DNA of 12,440 bases, from IMG/VR virus record IMGVR_UViG_2698536348_000004. One strand, 5' to 3'. This DNA is from a virus (taxonomy: Duplodnaviria; Heunggongvirae; Uroviricota; Caudoviricetes). The notes beneath the pieces are model-generated. The model saw only the letters and a program-made list of their open reading frames with translations. It was not told the DNA's origin and searched no databases. Shown in pieces: positions 69 through 7,182 of this stretch. How positions within the stretch are numbered: position 1 is the first letter of the stretch; each line of letters starts with the position of its first letter. A program made the position numbers and the translations under genes.

Positions 69-611
69 CGAATTTCTCCCGTGTACAGGAACAGAGTTAA
101 AAAGCCGGAACCGGAATCAAATTACAGGATGGCCATCTGCCAGTGGCAGGTCATAAAAAAAAGGCCGCGCCATGCGCAGCCAGAACTCACAAGGAAAATG
201 ATAGAAGGAAATAACATTAGTGATGTACGCATGGCGCCTCCCGCTAAGTTCTGCAATGATCAAACAGAACTCGCTACGTGCCCTTAAAACTCGATCATTT
301 AGCCCCTCCAAGGAGGATTCACCATGCGGTTGATTTTTTAATAAACAGTAAACAAAAAAGTCAAGGATTATTCATTCTGTTTTTTCATCATCGGCCACAG
401 CAATACCACAATGCCGCAGACCAGAGCGCCATCAGTCAGTACCAACATTATCCTGCTGGTGAAATCCATCATCACCATCACTAAAAGCAGGATCACAACA
501 GCAAGCAGACACAGTTTATAAAACAATGTTCAGAAAACGCATTCAGCATGCCTAAGGTTCTATTCCTACGAATAGCCAACTTGCAACTTAAAATATTATT
601 TATGCAGCCAA

Positions 612-1370
612 TTAAATTCTGGTCCTTACAATATCAACCTGAAGATTCTTATCTTGTGCTGATTGATAAATGACAAACCTTTTACTACCTGCATTGAAAG
701 AAGTAGACAAAACCAGACAATTATCATAACGAGCAAGAACATAATACCAACCATCATTATAATTAATCATTTCATATTCTTTCTTAAACTGTGGTTTGTA
801 ATATCCTGTCAGAAATGAAAAAAGCCAGAAATATGCCACAAAAGCAATCATCACAATCTCAAAAAAATGTTTTTTTATAAATGGCTTATCATAGAAGCAT
901 GATACCGATAAAAATCGCCCATAAGATCTTATCGAAATTGTAACCGCCAGCGCAATCGCTGCTGACAGTAGCAAAAGAGGTACCTGAATCTTCTGTCTCA
1001 ATATAGAAAACTCAATAATTGCCGGCACAAACAATAATTCCACAGCAAAATAAAGGCGAAATACATTTAGCTCTTGCATAGAATGTTTTCTTTTCACTGC
1101 GAAAAAGAATACAACACCAATACCCCAACCGATAAGAAATATAGCAATGACGATAACTGCAAAAAATAAACTTCTGGCAACATCATCAACACCTGCACCT
1201 ACAATCCACCATGGGAAGCCGTAGTAAAAAGAAGTACCCCATCCATAGAAATAAGCACTCCCCCATCCAAGGCATCCCATGTAGGCAATAAAAAGTGAAG
1301 AACTCCTGAGCAGCGCACCATCCTTCATAACCACCCCAATACAAGATGATAACATTGGCTTACAACTCAT
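612..1370 (-). CDS. Polytopic inner-membrane protein (about five hydrophobic helices, rich in W/Y/F/G, roughly 60-aa soluble C-terminal tail); function unknown; moron-like
   Basis: 252-aa ORF, AT-rich, first gene downstream of the pR'-like promoter. Five long hydrophobic stretches in the translation. No clear SD at 1370; an internal ATG at 1328 (MKDGALL...) is an alternative start. Confidence 0.65.
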   Translation of the reverse strand: MSCKPMLSSCIGVVMKDGALLRSSSLFIAYMGCLGWGSAYFYGWGTSFYYGFPWWIVGAGVDDVARSLFFAVIVIAIFLIGWGIGVVFFFAVKRKHSMQELNVFRLYFAVELLFVPAIIEFSILRQKIQVPLLLLSAAIALAVTISIRSYGRFLSVSCFYDKPFIKKHFFEIVMIAFVAYFWLFSFLTGYYKPQFKKEYEMINYNDGWYYVLARYDNCLVLSTSFNAGSKRFVIYQSAQDKNLQVDIVRTRI

Positions 1371-1607: not shown

Positions 1608-2231
1608 CTAACGTGTGATCGCATTCAAAATGTTGTCTGCGATTGACTCTTCCTTGTGGCATTGCACAACCAGAGCGTCATACAGCGGCTTAACAGTGCG
1701 TGACCAGGTGGGTTGGGTAAGGTTTGGGATTAGCATCGTCACAGCGCGATATGCGGCGCTTGCTGGCATTCTTGAATAACCGACGCCTTTACATCTTCCG
1801 CACTCTTTCTCAGCAACTATCCCCCACTGCTCTGTTTTGGCTATATCAACCGCACGGCCTGTACCGTGGCAATCTCTGCATCTTGCGCCCGGCGTAGCAG
1901 CACTACGGCAATAATCCGCATAAGCGAATGTTGCGAGCACTTGCAGTACCTTTGCCTTAGTATTTCCTTCGAGCTTTGCCACACCACGGTATTTCCCCGA
2001 TACCTTGTGTGCAAATTGCATCAGATAGTTGATAGCCTTTTGTTTGTCGTTCTGGCTGAGTTCATGCTTACCGCAGAATGCAGCCATTCCGAATCCGGCT
2101 TGTGATTGCGCCATCCCCATAGCAGCCATCACATCAGTACCGGAAAGAGAGTCAGAAGCCGTAGCCCGTGGTGAGTCGCTCATCATCGGGCTTTTTGGCG
2201 AATGAAATTTAGCTACGCTTTCGAGTCTCAT
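1608..2231 (-). CDS. Q: Late-gene antiterminator Q (lambda Q type)
   Basis: 207 aa; starts MRLESVAKFHSPKSPMMSDSPR; Cys-rich zinc-binding segment CRDCHGTGRAV...CGRCKGVG. Near-identical to lambda Q as recalled. Start overlaps the ninH stop. Confidence 0.9.
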   Translation of the reverse strand: MRLESVAKFHSPKSPMMSDSPRATASDSLSGTDVMAAMGMAQSQAGFGMAAFCGKHELSQNDKQKAINYLMQFAHKVSGKYRGVAKLEGNTKAKVLQVLATFAYADYCRSAATPGARCRDCHGTGRAVDIAKTEQWGIVAEKECGRCKGVGYSRMPASAAYRAVTMLIPNLTQPTWSRTVKPLYDALVVQCHKEESIADNILNAITR

Positions 2232-2775: not shown

Positions 2776-3062
2776 GACTTAATCTTCCCCTCCTTCAGCA
2801 GTATCGCCTGCGTCCTGATTACGCCTTCGAGGTGGTAAAGTCTGGCGTCTTTGTTGTCGAGATTATGGGTGCGTCTGTCGATTTCATCGTGACACGCGCT
2901 ACAAGCCCATGCGCCGATCAGGTCTTCAGGCTTCATTCCAGTTCCGCAAATTCCAGCCATCCGGTAATGTGCCAGAACTGTAGTTTCAGGATTGCCATTG
3001 CATATGCCGTAAATACGAACCTGGCATTCTCTGCCGCGTGCTTCTTTGCGTAGGTTAGCCAT
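2772..3062 (-). CDS. ybcO: DUF1364/YbcO-like Cys-rich nin-region protein (putative nuclease)
   Basis: 96 aa; RGRECQVRIYGICNGNPETTVLAH ... CSACHDEIDRR resembles DLP12 YbcO as recalled; translationally coupled to rusA. Confidence 0.65.
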   Translation of the reverse strand: MANLRKEARGRECQVRIYGICNGNPETTVLAHYRMAGICGTGMKPEDLIGAWACSACHDEIDRRTHNLDNKDARLYHLEGVIRTQAILLKEGKIKS

Positions 3063-3775
3063 TAAGCAGCCTCCCCTGTTACTTTCAGCATTCCGTTATC
3101 GAGCAGCTTTCTGGTCAGCCACTGTTGACCACGCCCGGTGATTTTTGTGGTGAACGATATCTGTATTCCGTGATTTGTGTTGACCGCTGTTTCTTTCACT
3201 GTGAAATAGCCGCGCTCCATATATTCCTGCATTGGCACATTTCGCCGGGAACCTGAAGCAATAAGGATTTTGTGATCACGCATCCACGCAAACAGTTTGT
3301 TTGGACCAATACCAACAACCTTTGCATAGTTTCCAATCAAAATTCCGCTGGCCTCGCCAACGCGATCGGCAAACTCAACTTTAGGTGCGGCAATTGCGAG
3401 CTGGTTTTCTAGTTGCATTTTCTGCTCAGCAAGATCAGCAGCAAGGCGTAACGCTTCTGGTAGCGTTTTTGGGATATTAACCGCAGCTTCTTCAAGCTCT
3501 CGCCAACGGTCAACAAGACGAGCGGTGAATTCCGGCGACAACTGGGCAACGACAATAATGCTGTCGCGCTTACCTTGTTCTCCTTCGAAGATGTAATAGC
3601 TTACCGGTCGGCCTGCGGTGGGCTTCTCCCCCATTGGGGGAAAAGCTATTACACCTCGTCCCGCCAGTCGTTCAATAGATTGTTTCACCTTGTCATGACG
3701 ACTTCCCACCAACTCAGCGATTTCAATGCTGGTCATTTTGATGGCGTTGCTATTTATCAGCTCATTCATTGTCAT
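3062..3775 (-). CDS. Phage antirepressor/regulatory protein (Rha-like N-terminal domain with KilA-C/ANT-like C-terminal domain)
   Basis: 237 aa; N-terminal TSIEIAELVGSRHDKVKQSIERL resembles the Rha family HTH segment; family call from motif memory. A second in-frame ATG at 3769 has better SD spacing (AGAGGA). Confidence 0.7.
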   Translation of the reverse strand: MTMNELINSNAIKMTSIEIAELVGSRHDKVKQSIERLAGRGVIAFPPMGEKPTAGRPVSYYIFEGEQGKRDSIIVVAQLSPEFTARLVDRWRELEEAAVNIPKTLPEALRLAADLAEQKMQLENQLAIAAPKVEFADRVGEASGILIGNYAKVVGIGPNKLFAWMRDHKILIASGSRRNVPMQEYMERGYFTVKETAVNTNHGIQISFTTKITGRGQQWLTRKLLDNGMLKVTGEAA

Positions 3776-3920: not shown

Positions 3921-4934
3921 TTACTTGTCTGAATCATCCAGTTCGTCTGTTTTCACATCCTCAAACCTTGGATGCAGGCGATTCATTTTTGCAATAAAAT
4001 CTGAATAGTCGTTAGATAGCTTCATAATCGTAACGGTTGATGACAGATGCTCTCTTAATTTTTGATATCCAATATTTGGCGTCAGCCCCTGAAACAACTT
4101 TGTACCTTTTGAGGCCTTTACGTTCTGCTTTTTAAGCTCCTCAAGGATGTTTGGTGCCAATCTCTTGTAGACGATATCATTTGTCAAAACGCCAAAATAC
4201 TGAGGCCGGAAGCGGGGATTTTCCGGCGGGTATTCTAAGCCCCTTAACCTGAAAAGCTCTTCATAATAATCAGCAGGAAATGTTGTAATATAAGGTTGAA
4301 TTTCCTTTGCGACAAAGGCCTCGAGTATTTTGGCGAGCGCATCTTTTTCTCTATCTCGCTGGTACCCCGTCGCTTCATCAACAAGCGCTATTATTCCGAC
4401 TTTAGCTAATGAGCGCACCAGAATTTCAGCTTTCTTGGCTGTCTCTAACTGGTTTGGCCTGGTGATAGCGCCTGCCTCTCTTGCCTTTAAATAAACATCG
4501 CAGACAAGAGGTATTATGGATGCGTCATAACCTTCCTGGACGGAGCCAGTAATCGTCTTGTATTTGACCTTATTGATCACATCCATAACATCTTGATTTA
4601 TATATTTTTTAAGGTTTGCAGCATCCATAAAAGCGGGCATATTGATCACCCCCTCTTCTTGAGGTGCTCTACCCCCTCTTTGTGGTCGGCCAAATGCTTT
4701 AAAAACAGAAGCTTGTGATATGATACGCCGTCCATTTTCGAGAACCGCGACATCTAATTCCGCATCACCGATCTTTAACTTTCCCTCATTCGCAGATACG
4801 GGCAATAAAGCTTTTTCTTTTTTTGCGGCAACAGCCTTTCTTGAGGATTCTTTTCTTTGCTCTGCTGTCATTTTTGCCGCGCGTGCCTTACCGCCTTTGG
4901 CCTTCCCACTAACATCATCATTTTTCATGAGCAT
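3921..4934 (-). CDS. Hypothetical phage protein with a lysine/alanine-rich basic N-terminal region (possibly P63C-domain family, unverified); moron
   Basis: Track ORF 3921..4988, but the first 18 codons overlap a promoter and dyad elements, so the start is more likely ATG 4934 (MLMKNDD) or 4928. Own promoter upstream and terminator downstream. Confidence 0.7.
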   Translation of the reverse strand: MLMKNDDVSGKAKGGKARAAKMTAEQRKESSRKAVAAKKEKALLPVSANEGKLKIGDAELDVAVLENGRRIISQASVFKAFGRPQRGGRAPQEEGVINMPAFMDAANLKKYINQDVMDVINKVKYKTITGSVQEGYDASIIPLVCDVYLKAREAGAITRPNQLETAKKAEILVRSLAKVGIIALVDEATGYQRDREKDALAKILEAFVAKEIQPYITTFPADYYEELFRLRGLEYPPENPRFRPQYFGVLTNDIVYKRLAPNILEELKKQNVKASKGTKLFQGLTPNIGYQKLREHLSSTVTIMKLSNDYSDFIAKMNRLHPRFEDVKTDELDDSDK

Positions 4935-4959
4935 ATCTCGTGTTGTGATTGATAAGTCA

Positions 4960-5006
4960 ATCATACACATGCACGTTGTAACGTGCAATATTTAAATATG
5001 CACGTA
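4960..5006 (-). promoter_or_regulatory. Sigma70-like promoter for the 3921..4934 gene, overlapped by GCACGT dyad operator-like elements
   Basis: Minus-strand read TTGCAC (plus 4983-4988) - 17 nt - TATGAT (plus 4960-4965). Half-sites GCACGT at 4971-4976, ACGTGC at 4981-4986, GCACGT at 5000-5005 form two inverted repeats. Confidence 0.5.
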
Positions 5007-5151
5007 AATTGCGAATCAGATAATGAGGAGACTTTCTCCCCCTTGCACTGACATCATGGTATTCTGCTCAAAACTAAATTTCTGGAGCGTTTCGTTGGAA
5101 GGTATTTGCAGTTTTCGCAGATTATGTCGGTGATGCTTCGTCGCTGTCGTC

Positions 5152-5562
5152 TCATTCGTACCTCCTGTCGGTAAATCTGACACCCTGACCAATAGCCCAG
5201 GCTGTTGTGTACTCGATCAGACTTGCCATACGCTTCACGCTCATCTGCGCGCTGCTTTCGCGAATGTTGACGTATTCGCCTTCAAGCCCGGGCAAAACAT
5301 CAGCTTCCTGCTTTGTTGCCACTGCATGACCGCTAATCAACAAAACCTTCCATTGTTCTGGTTTTAACCACTTATCGCACCATTGAACCTGACGTGCGAT
5401 ATCCGCCAGCATCGCGTGAAATTTTGCGTTCTGGTCAAGGTTGCGCTTGTAGTCAGTAATGCGGATGGTGACTGGCTTGTCTTTATCGAGAGGAGTTGCG
5501 AGGATGGCGTTGATTGCGGCTTGCTGTTGTTGCTTAGTTCGGAGGAAGATTGTTTGCTTCAT
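5152..5562 (-). CDS. ninB: NinB (Orf-family recombination mediator)
   Basis: 136 aa; [20 protein letters not shown] and overall pattern resemble lambda NinB (RSLDQNRKLWACLGDVSRQVEW); GGAG SD; 2 nt after the upstream gene's stop. Confidence 0.8.
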
Positions 5563-5564
5563 CG

Positions 5565-5897
5565 TTACTCCTTCACTTTGACTTCAGCGGCTATGATGGC
5601 TTTCATCACTGCAATTACCGTTTTGTCCTTCCCATCCTCATGCCCCATCGCATAAGCGCCTTCTTCGCCACCTTTCCAAAAGTTGTCATTCGATTCGGGC
5701 CAGTCGATATCCAGTTCAATAGCTGCTCGCGATGCCTGCCACGTTTGCCAGTGGCCTTGAACATCGTCCATCACGTATTGACCACCAATATTACCGCTGC
5801 CAATTTCATGGTGATTTTCAGGGTAACGGATAAGGTCTGAGGATTCGCCTCCACGTCGCAACCAACTTTCTTCAAACTGCTTTCTTGATTCGTCCAT
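5565..5897 (-). CDS. Hypothetical acidic protein (110 aa)
   Basis: ORF with a good SD (GAGGA) upstream of ATG 5897; tightly packed between the small membrane ORF and ninB; no recognised motif. Confidence 0.6.
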   Translation of the reverse strand: MDESRKQFEESWLRRGGESSDLIRYPENHHEIGSGNIGGQYVMDDVQGHWQTWQASRAAIELDIDWPESNDNFWKGGEEGAYAMGHEDGKDKTVIAVMKAIIAAEVKVKE

Positions 5898-5914
5898 CGA
5901 TACTTATCCTCAGT

Positions 5915-6121
5915 TCAACTCACAAAACGCCACGCCATTTTTGCTACAGCGACAGGCGCAACACCGATAATCACCCACAGGAGAATGCTACCGAAAAGCA
6001 CACCCACCAGGTCTTTACCTTCGCCTACCAACCGGACAAAACTTCCGACAACCGCAATGAACGTCGACACCATCCACATAGCACCGAGAATCCTCAATGC
6101 AGAGAAAATTAACTCAGCCAC
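5915..6121 (-). CDS. Small two-helix membrane protein (68 aa), GTG start
   Basis: Two hydrophobic segments (IFSALRILGAMWMVSTFIAVVGSF and LVGVLFGSILLWVIIGVAPVAV); GTG start at 6119-6121 with GGGGGAGAG SD; directly downstream of a terminator. Confidence 0.55.
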   Translation of the reverse strand: MAELIFSALRILGAMWMVSTFIAVVGSFVRLVGEGKDLVGVLFGSILLWVIIGVAPVAVAKMAWRFVS

Positions 6122-6134
6122 GATTTACTCTCCC

Positions 6135-6170
6135 CCAAATAAAAAGGCCTGCGATTACCAGCAGGCCTGT
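6135..6170 (-). terminator. Rho-independent terminator after ren (tR2-like position)
   Basis: Minus-strand read GGCCTGC-TGGTAATC-GCAGGCC followed by TTTTTATTT; lies between the ren stop (6194) and the next gene. Confidence 0.75.
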
Positions 6171-6193: not shown

Positions 6194-6484
6194 TCATCTT
6201 TTAACTCCATATACCGCCAATACCCGTTTCATCGCGGCACTCTGGCAACACTCCTTAAAAATCAGGTTCGTGCTCATCTTTCCTTCCCGTTCTTCCTTGG
6301 TAGCAAACCGGTAATACACCGTTCGCCAGACCTTACCTTCGATAACCAGAAGACCTGCCCGTGCCATTTTAGCCGCGGCCTGATTTATGCTGGTTACTGT
6401 TGCGCCTGTTAACGCGGCAACGTCCGGCGCACAGAAGCTATTATGCGTCCCCAGGTAATGAATAATTGCCTCTTTGCCCGTCAT
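6194..6484 (-). CDS. ren: Ren (protects against Rex exclusion in lambda)
   Basis: 96 aa; MTGKEAIIHYLGTHNSFCAPDVAALTGATVTSINQAAAKMARAG matches lambda Ren as recalled; ATGA overlap with the P stop, as in lambda. Confidence 0.85.
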   Translation of the reverse strand: MTGKEAIIHYLGTHNSFCAPDVAALTGATVTSINQAAAKMARAGLLVIEGKVWRTVYYRFATKEEREGKMSTNLIFKECCQSAAMKRVLAVYGVKR

Positions 6485-7182
6485 ACACTTGCTCCTTTCA
6501 GTCCGAACTTAGCTTTAATTTCTGCGATCTTCGCCAGCGCCTGAACACGATTTAGAGGTCTGCCGCCCATGACAGGAAGTTGTTTTACTGGTTCAGGTAT
6601 CGTCTCACCACGGTTAATTCGCGCTGTCATACAGGTCAGTTCATCGGCAGCCTTACGGCGTAATTCCGCATCAGTAAGCGCATTGGCCCGCATGTTCTGA
6701 TACAGGTTGGTGACCAGCCAGTAGTGCGCGTTTGATTTCCACGGATAAGACTCCGCATCCGGATACAGGCCACGCTTCCGGCAATACTCGTAAACCATAT
6801 CAACCAGCTCGCTGACGTTTGGCAGTCCGGCGATAACGGATGCTTCTTCCCGGCACCATGCAACAAACTGCCCGGGAGATGGCAGAAATGGTCGATTCTG
6901 CCGACGGGCTACGCGCATTCCTGCGTTAACCTGTTCCATTGTGGTGATCCCGTTTTCCCGGAAAGCCAGAACCCACTGGCGGCGGATTTCGTTCAGTTCG
7001 TTCTGGTCACGGTTAGCCAGGCTCGCCGGGAAAGTTGCCAGTAACTGGCTGAACACACCGTTGATGATCTGCGCTACCTGCTGTACCTGCGGCTTTTCGT
7101 CGTACTGTTCCGGCATGTTGTTGGCGATCCGACGCATCTGCTCACGGTCAAAATTAACCATCTGTGCGGCGATGTTTTTCAT
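6481..7182 (-). CDS. P: Replication protein P (DnaB helicase loader)
   Basis: 233 aa; MKNIAAQMVNFDREQMRRIANNMPEQYDEKPQVQQVAQIING... essentially the lambda P sequence as recalled; ATGA overlap with O. Confidence 0.95.
   Translation of the reverse strand: MKNIAAQMVNFDREQMRRIANNMPEQYDEKPQVQQVAQIINGVFSQLLATFPASLANRDQNELNEIRRQWVLAFRENGITTMEQVNAGMRVARRQNRPFLPSPGQFVAWCREEASVIAGLPNVSELVDMVYEYCRKRGLYPDAESYPWKSNAHYWLVTNLYQNMRANALTDAELRRKAADELTCMTARINRGETIPEPVKQLPVMGGRPLNRVQALAKIAEIKAKFGLKGASV

Follow-up and report, generated by a model that had tools for sequence, protein, structure and literature searches.

The locus reported here has a close known counterpart in phage lambda. Its nin region, which runs from ren and the terminator tR2 through ninB to Q, consists of tightly packed, dispensable delayed-early genes that can be deleted (nin5), with Shine-Dalgarno sequences placed inside upstream genes. 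The lambda genes behind tR2 belong to the pR operon, are delayed-early, depend on N for read-through of tR2 and are silent in the lysogen. The window analysed here, a stretch of 12,440 nucleotides (nt) from IMG/VR record IMGVR_UViG_2698536348_000004, spans the immunity, replication and nin genes of a lambdoid prophage, and it resembles lambda in its operon, its tR2, its Shine-Dalgarno sequences, its tight packing and its dispensable genes. Lambda has no gene between tR2 and ninB, whereas the window contains two open reading frames (ORFs) at this position, one for a membrane protein of 68 amino acids (aa) and one for an acidic protein of 110 aa.

We consider it likely that these are two independent, dispensable, delayed-early accessory genes, individually mobile, in the variable slot between tR2 and ninB that is present in many lambdoid phages. 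The arrangement is mosaicism of a kind ordinary for lambdoid nin regions. The families of the two genes, phrog_1165 for the small ORF and PF26207 ('Phage_phiTE_015', phrog_343) for the 110-aa gene, are catalogued but uncharacterised, and since RefSeq already contains proteins identical to both products, the feature is not new.

Distribution and position of the two genes

Either gene is often found where the other is missing. In about 30 of 80 IMG/VR loci chosen for the small ORF, ninB follows 11 nt downstream and no PF26207 gene is present, while among 76 informative IMG/VR loci chosen for PF26207 the small ORF is located immediately upstream in 50 (at a fixed spacer of 20 nt), further upstream in 13 and is absent in the remaining 13. 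When 80 distinct tR2-to-ninB slots were compared, 37 contained the small ORF with a PF26207 gene, 15 contained both together with another membrane ORF of 63 aa, 13 contained the small ORF alone, and the others showed rarer arrangements. Known phages vary in the same way: HK630 and HK75 have only the small ORF, mEp235 and H-19B have both genes, Stx2-86 has the small ORF with a different follower, and in VT2-Sakai the PF26207 gene (orf29) comes directly after the gene at the ren position, without the small ORF. The 110-aa gene is an optional second cassette behind the small ORF, and the two proteins would not need each other.

A profile search of genome contigs with PF26207 alignment A4 yielded seven loci. 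The PF26207 genes of Erwinia and Atlantibacter lie near ninB and have no membrane ORF directly upstream; the Pseudocitrobacter member, also near ninB, has only an unrelated membrane ORF of 74 aa before it; and the Pantoea member has no membrane ORF upstream, with no ninB detected nearby. phiTE_015 itself, encoded by a virulent myovirus, has no membrane-protein neighbour.

The alleles of the two genes also reassort freely, which argues against co-adaptation. Both allele classes of the small ORF are combined with the same PF26207 alleles; locus L092, for instance, has a small ORF with 54% identity and a PF26207 gene with 95% identity to those of the window, and in locus L093 both values are 94%. 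Pairwise blastn comparisons with relatives, including loci L138 and L148, placed homology breakpoints at 6128 (just upstream of the GTG start codon), at 5915 (the stop codon of the small ORF) and at 5741-5715 (a core of the 110-aa gene coding for WQASRAA). Many relatives match the 110-aa protein only at residues 1-64 or only at residues 50-110 in tblastn searches. The core at 5715-5741 is seen as an intragenic junction in loci L138-L152, where the identity of relatives exceeds 90% on one side of it only, either upstream or downstream; recombination at this WQASRAAIE-coding stretch gives chimeric N-terminal and C-terminal halves.

Further membrane ORFs were observed in the slot. A second, unrelated one of 63 aa (MSMSRRSSFLGFVIFLSC...) often follows the PF26207 gene (15 or more IMG/VR slots; for example L006, 1975-2139), and a third of 60 aa is found occasionally. 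Tiny membrane proteins are thus abundant in the slot between tR2 and ninB.

The early-right operon is encoded on the minus strand in the order cro-cII-O-P-ren-tR2-68-aa ORF-110-aa gene-ninB...ninH-Q. The features of the locus are:

8891-9598, plus strand: cI (window gene map)
8585-8812, minus strand: cro (window gene map)
8150-8446, minus strand: cII (window gene map)
7179-8117, minus strand: O (window gene map)
6481-7182, minus strand: P (window gene map)
6194-6484, minus strand: ren, upstream anchor of the slot (phrog_142 Ren-like, E=2.5e-40; 'protein ren' in an identical genome)
6145-6168, minus strand: intrinsic terminator hairpin tR2, AGGCCTGC-TGGTAATC-GCAGGCCT, then TTTTTATTT (terminator scan)
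6130-6136, minus strand: Shine-Dalgarno sequence GGGGGAG, 8 nt 5' of the GTG of the 68-aa ORF (sequence and lambda alignment)
5915-6121, minus strand: 68-aa GTG-start protein of the phrog_1165 family, predicted inner-membrane helical hairpin (ORF list, profile match)
5907-5911, minus strand: Shine-Dalgarno sequence GAGGA, 9 nt 5' of the ATG of the 110-aa gene (sequence)
5565-5897, minus strand: 110-aa acidic soluble protein, PF26207 'Phage_phiTE_015' / phrog_343, Sf6 gp48-like (profile match)
5715-5741, minus strand: intragenic mosaic junction zone at the WQASRAAIE-coding core of the 110-aa gene (blastn breakpoints)
5615-5764, minus strand: alternative-frame 49-aa ORF MFKATGKRGRHREQLL... inside the 110-aa gene (ORF list)
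5568-5573, minus strand: ninB Shine-Dalgarno sequence AAGGAG, inside the last two codons (K-E) of the 110-aa gene (sequence)
5152-5562, minus strand: ninB, Orf-family recombination mediator, downstream anchor of the slot (Pfam NinB, E=4e-54)
1608-2231, minus strand: Q (window gene map)

The small ORF and the 110-aa gene are separated by 17 nt (5898-5914) and the latter is separated from ninB by 2 nt (5563-5564); each of the three genes has its own Shine-Dalgarno sequence, and the location of the ninB one inside the 110-aa gene is also kept in mEp235. The 557-bp stretch 5565-6121 is 100% identical in four complete E. coli genomes, in which PGAP calls both products hypothetical (WP_072128920.1, 68 aa, and WP_052924745.1, 110 aa). 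Downstream of ninB follow a truncated ninE, a P63C-domain gene, an Ant/KilAC gene, a DUF1364/YbcO gene, rusA, ninH and Q. The 49-aa ORF in another frame (5615-5764) was rejected as a gene; it recurs in relatives only through its overlap with the conserved WQASRAA-coding stretch. A search against Rfam found no RNA family in the window.

The initial annotation had described two extra genes between a tR2-like terminator and ninB, and its coordinates, both gaps and the GTG start are all correct; the two are real genes, tightly packed and extra with respect to lambda. It had also regarded them as inserted. This applies relative to lambda only, as an occupied slot is very common in the sampled loci, and since this is so, lambda with its empty slot may equally be the reduced state.

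The terminator scan detected both the hairpin and the T-run of the proposed tR2, and the hairpin is, base for base, that of lambda tR2 as well as that of H-19B, mEp235 and HK630. The identity with lambda extends through the Shine-Dalgarno sequence GGGGGAG, and the two sequences part about 10 nt ahead of the start codon. At the point of divergence ninB starts in lambda (...GGGGGAGAGGGAAGTCATG) and the 68-aa ORF starts here (...GGGGGAGA-GTAAATCGTG), so that the same Shine-Dalgarno sequence serves ninB in lambda and the small ORF in the window. A crude scan with the sigma-70 consensus detected nothing resembling a promoter on the minus strand from tR2 to ninB. Together with the lambda-identical hairpin, this suggests that transcription across tR2 would be N-dependent.

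Both genes are tightly packed members of the pR operon, encoded on its strand in the interval from tR2 to Q, as is characteristic of delayed-early genes of the nin region. Because they are located behind tR2, they are probably delayed-early lytic genes, judging from this position and from established lambda biology. They would be transcribed only in the lytic cycle or upon induction, along with the genes from ninB to Q, and not in the repressed lysogen. Expression in the lysogen, which an exclusion or toxin-antitoxin (TA) module would normally need, is not indicated since a promoter-like site is missing between tR2 and ninB. A delayed-early timing is more in keeping with accessory functions in the lytic phase than with an exclusion or TA module that protects the lysogen.

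In HK620 and HK630 a 'ninA' is annotated at this locus (L004 2170-2253; L005 2170-2253), a 27-aa ORF across the tR2 hairpin that shares a few bases with the true start of the 68-aa ORF. As it lies across tR2 and overlaps this start, the annotated 'ninA' is probably an annotation artefact and not a gene. An identity of the small ORF with the NinA of P22/HK620 was rejected: NinA is the 27-aa ORF spanning tR2, upstream of the 68-aa ORF.

The two proteins and their families

Both ORFs are genuine protein-coding genes with intact frames under purifying selection in dozens of phages. This conclusion is drawn from the intact frames, the conserved GTG, a ratio of nonsynonymous to synonymous substitutions (dN/dS) below 1, full-length family matches and confident AlphaFold2 (AF2) models. 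The initial annotation had considered that the frames might not be conserved, which is contradicted by their maintenance in dozens of phages, or that both might prove to be widespread core nin genes of known function; they are indeed widespread in nin regions, but neither is a core gene or has a known function. Its description of a two-helix membrane peptide and an acidic protein is borne out by the AF2 hairpin and by an isoelectric point (pI) of 4.76.

The 68-aa protein (identical to WP_072128920.1) matches phrog_1165 over its full length (1-68 of 68, E=1.2e-34). It has 191 close homologues in Escherichia, Salmonella and relatives, nearly all of them exactly 68 aa long, and the ORF was found in 107 sequenced-phage records. 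It travels with tR2 and is nearly always the first gene behind the terminator. The GTG start and the 68 intact codons are present in 62 of 63 distinct nucleotide versions among the phage loci fetched. A second allele class with 51-57% identity keeps the length and the invariant residues G13, W16, R30, K36, W49, P56 and W64-R65-F66, with a dN/dS of about 0.3-0.4 between these two classes, and a Salmonella class with 42.6% identity also keeps the length. In the records of HK75, HK630 and mEp235 only 52-54 aa are annotated, starting from an internal ATG. Since the GTG, the Shine-Dalgarno sequence and the first 16 codons are conserved, the 68-aa form is supported, and it corrects the shorter annotations in several phage records.

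The protein is hydrophobic and basic (pI 9.98, grand average of hydropathy 1.47), and the AF2 model is a helical hairpin (helices 2-33 and 38-67) with a predicted local distance difference test (pLDDT) value of 92. In the inner membrane it would form an N-in/C-in hairpin whose positively charged C-terminus AKMAWRF, the only net-positive segment of the protein, faces the cytoplasm. It would modulate a membrane process early in lytic growth, a block of DNA injection as by T4 Imm being one possibility. We give such a role as an inner-membrane modulator of an early process a low probability. A holin or pinholin identity was rejected, because the gene is part of the early operon and not of a late lysis cassette and the protein has no charged tail; a separate class II holin is encoded downstream of Q in an identical prophage copy.

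The 110-aa protein (identical to WP_052924745.1) matches phrog_343 with E=2.5e-28, and PF26207 is recorded for the exact sequence and for nearly all homologues in the public collection. Our own Pfam scans of both proteins were empty, for the 110-aa protein because the Pfam copy used did not contain the PF26207 model. The protein is acidic, with 22 D+E versus 12 K+R, and dN/dS is 0-0.5 in both halves of its gene. The family combines a conserved helical scaffold with a hypervariable insert. The motifs SRxQFE-W in an N-terminal helix, W-x2-WQASRAAIE-(I/L)-x-LP and a C-terminal A-I-x-AAG-(I/L)-KVK are strongly conserved in the family, with a hypervariable segment between WQASRAAIE and AGxKVK. The 110-aa protein contains SRxQFE-W, WxxWQASRAAIE and AGxKVK and is a stand-alone protein of the class of about 80-140 aa. 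In the AF2 model the N-terminal domain (residues 1-58) has pLDDT values of 87-95 and the insert is poorly defined.

A profile search among 1.84 billion representatives retrieved 640 clusters (at 50% identity) with E<=0.001; all of the best matches listed are stand-alone proteins of about 50-160 aa, and some members have an N-terminal Zn-ribbon of about 36 residues, as in Sf6 gp48. phiTE_015, from the virulent Pectobacterium myovirus phiTE, gives an hhalign probability of 99.5% against the family profile, and a PF26207 gene was found in 143 sequenced-phage records. Genes for Lar-like Zn-ribbon proteins (restriction-alleviation type) adjoin PF26207 genes in VT2-Sakai, phiTE and a Pantoea prophage (related loci L167 3045-3287, L180 5970-6371 and L171 2038-2283), an anecdotal neighbourhood that hints at counter-defence or host takeover.

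The small, acidic PF26207 protein would bind a factor of the host or of a competitor, with the variable insert setting the specificity. We give a role of the host-takeover or counter-defence type a low chance, about the same as that given above to the membrane modulator. Unlikely as well is a wider picture in which PF26207 proteins are widespread early counter-defence or host-takeover binders. In it the conserved two-helix scaffold and the terminal beta-pair would display the hypervariable insert, which would set the target specificity, new specificities would arise through recombination at the conserved WQASRAA-coding core, and the 68-aa hairpin would be a separate early membrane effector, such as a lytic-phase injection blocker. 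The gene architecture, the early-operon position and the loose neighbourhood with Lar-like genes speak for this picture to a limited extent.

Alternative explanations

The initial annotation had pointed out that a small membrane protein combined with a soluble protein is a common layout of small exclusion or toxin-like modules, adding the caution that nothing identifies one here, and this caution holds. As a two-component exclusion, abortive-infection or TA-like module the pair would consist of a membrane effector or toxin and an acidic soluble regulator or sensor. The genes are indeed adjacent and tightly packed, with a fixed spacer of 17-20 nt in 50 of the 76 PF26207 loci, the products are a membrane hairpin and a soluble protein, and both genes are dispensable, since lambda lacks them. 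The layout nevertheless remains unsupported as a module: the genes occur separately and are not inherited as a unit, their alleles reassort, a mosaic junction lies between them, and neither protein had a match in PADLOC at E<=0.1 (nor was there any match to NCBIfam). Moreover, with no promoter-like site and a position behind tR2 they are probably silent in the lysogen, and the window contains a much better defence candidate at the rex position downstream of cI. We therefore consider such a module improbable. Even less probable is that both genes are lysogenic-conversion 'morons' with their own promoter in the prophage state, benefiting the host. Accessory genes in variable slots are often morons and the prophage is present in human clinical E. 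coli isolates, but a promoter-like site and a flanking terminator downstream of the pair are missing, the small ORF directly behind tR2 uses the Shine-Dalgarno sequence of lambda ninB, and the tight operon packing is typical of nin genes.

T4 Imm is an early small inner-membrane protein, and the 68-aa protein alone might be a lytic-phase superinfection-exclusion protein or DNA-entry blocker of this kind, with PF26207 as unrelated cargo. This would fit a predicted small inner-membrane hairpin whose gene is the first of the delayed-early operon, is often alone in the slot and is found in phages whose virions differ widely (lambda-like, HK97-like, P22-like and Stx podoviruses). The comparison is, however, a pure analogy, and no sequence or fold similarity to characterised exclusion proteins was found, so that we think this unlikely, though less so than a module or morons. 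The least probable explanation treats one or both ORFs as filler without function, frames that arose by chance or are decaying. Neither family has a recorded function, and dN/dS is noisy among near-identical variants of the small ORF. Against this stand the near-complete conservation of frame and start codon in the small ORF, the unchanged length and invariant W, G and P residues in homologues with only 42-57% identity, the 640 cluster representatives of PF26207 with strongly conserved motifs, the dN/dS below 0.5 for the 110-aa gene and the good Shine-Dalgarno sequences of both genes.

Several points weigh against two independent delayed-early genes, the reading we prefer. Co-occurrence is frequent, the small ORF being located upstream in 63 of the 76 PF26207 loci, and the two proteins may cooperate functionally to some degree; a high raw co-occurrence is also what is expected from two cassettes sharing one slot. 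The samples of loci were ascertained on the two genes themselves, a crude sigma-70 consensus search would miss weak or non-canonical promoters, dN/dS sometimes exceeds 1 among very close small-ORF variants, and the association with Lar-like genes is anecdotal.

Other features of the window and comparison with known systems

Directly downstream of cI, where lambda has rexAB, four ORFs are located on the plus strand (9659-11736). The first encodes a 113-aa protein that matches the PADLOC candidate PDC-S43 (E=5e-42) and contains DUF3024; the others are a 153-aa ORF, a 348-aa Ser/Thr kinase that matches the PD-T4-6 and mad6 defence models with E values as low as 7e-50, and a 54-aa ORF. A lysogen-expressed exclusion module is much more plausibly sought in these ORFs than in the 68-aa/110-aa pair.

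The start codon of ninE (5078-5155, minus strand) overlaps the ninB stop codon (ATGA). The similarity to NinE is limited to the first 26 codons, after which the frame diverges and ends in a stop, and the remnant is followed by the P63C-domain gene (3921-4988, minus strand) and the Ant/KilAC antirepressor gene (3062-3775, minus strand). It thus appears that ninE was interrupted by the insertion of a two-gene P63C and Ant/KilAC cassette. PGAP annotates the P63C gene of CP148570, a genome otherwise identical, as frameshifted. Downstream of Q, the region in which Stx phages carry stx, the window encodes a 252-aa multi-pass membrane protein (612-1370, minus strand), for which Pfam PF27470 TfpB is recorded on an identical prophage, and a 52-aa DUF3927 membrane protein (368-526, minus strand).

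Literature searches on PF26207, phiTE_015, nin-region membrane proteins and nin-region anti-defence returned nothing on these genes. The result documents a normal variable slot of the lambdoid nin region and has little weight as it stands. It has modest value as a pointer, as PF26207 and the tR2-linked 68-aa membrane ORF are both abundant and would be cheap to study in well-known phages; PF26207 has members in the Stx phages 933W/VT2-Sakai, in HK022 and in Sf6.

With lambda RexAB and other prophage exclusion or TA modules the pair shares only the two-gene layout including a membrane protein. Rex is expressed with cI in the lysogen, whereas the present genes are located behind tR2 without a promoter-like site, and unlike the parts of such modules they are not co-inherited and match no defence model. 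The 68-aa protein resembles class II (pin)holins such as S68 of phage 21 in length, in its two transmembrane helices and in the predicted N-in/C-in topology. It differs from them in lacking a highly charged C-terminal tail, ending only in AKMAWRFVS, and in its gene, which lies outside the lysis cassette and would be expressed early.

The 110-aa protein has the same motifs and belongs to the same size class as Sf6 gp48, VT2-Sakai orf29, an unannotated ORF of HK022 and phiTE_015, and in lambdoid phages these genes occupy the same position upstream of ninB. It is distinguished from its relatives by its own variant of the hypervariable middle segment (LDIDWPESNDNFWKGGEEGAYAMGHEDGKDK) and from the Sf6 gp48 type by the absence of the Zn-ribbon extension of about 36 aa at the N-terminus. 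The small ORF resembles its PHROG 1165 relatives in Stx2-86 (gp69; Lahn2 ORF69), HK75, HK630, mEp235, mEpX1 and Kapi1, which match it over the full length with 81-95% identity and are always located directly behind tR2.
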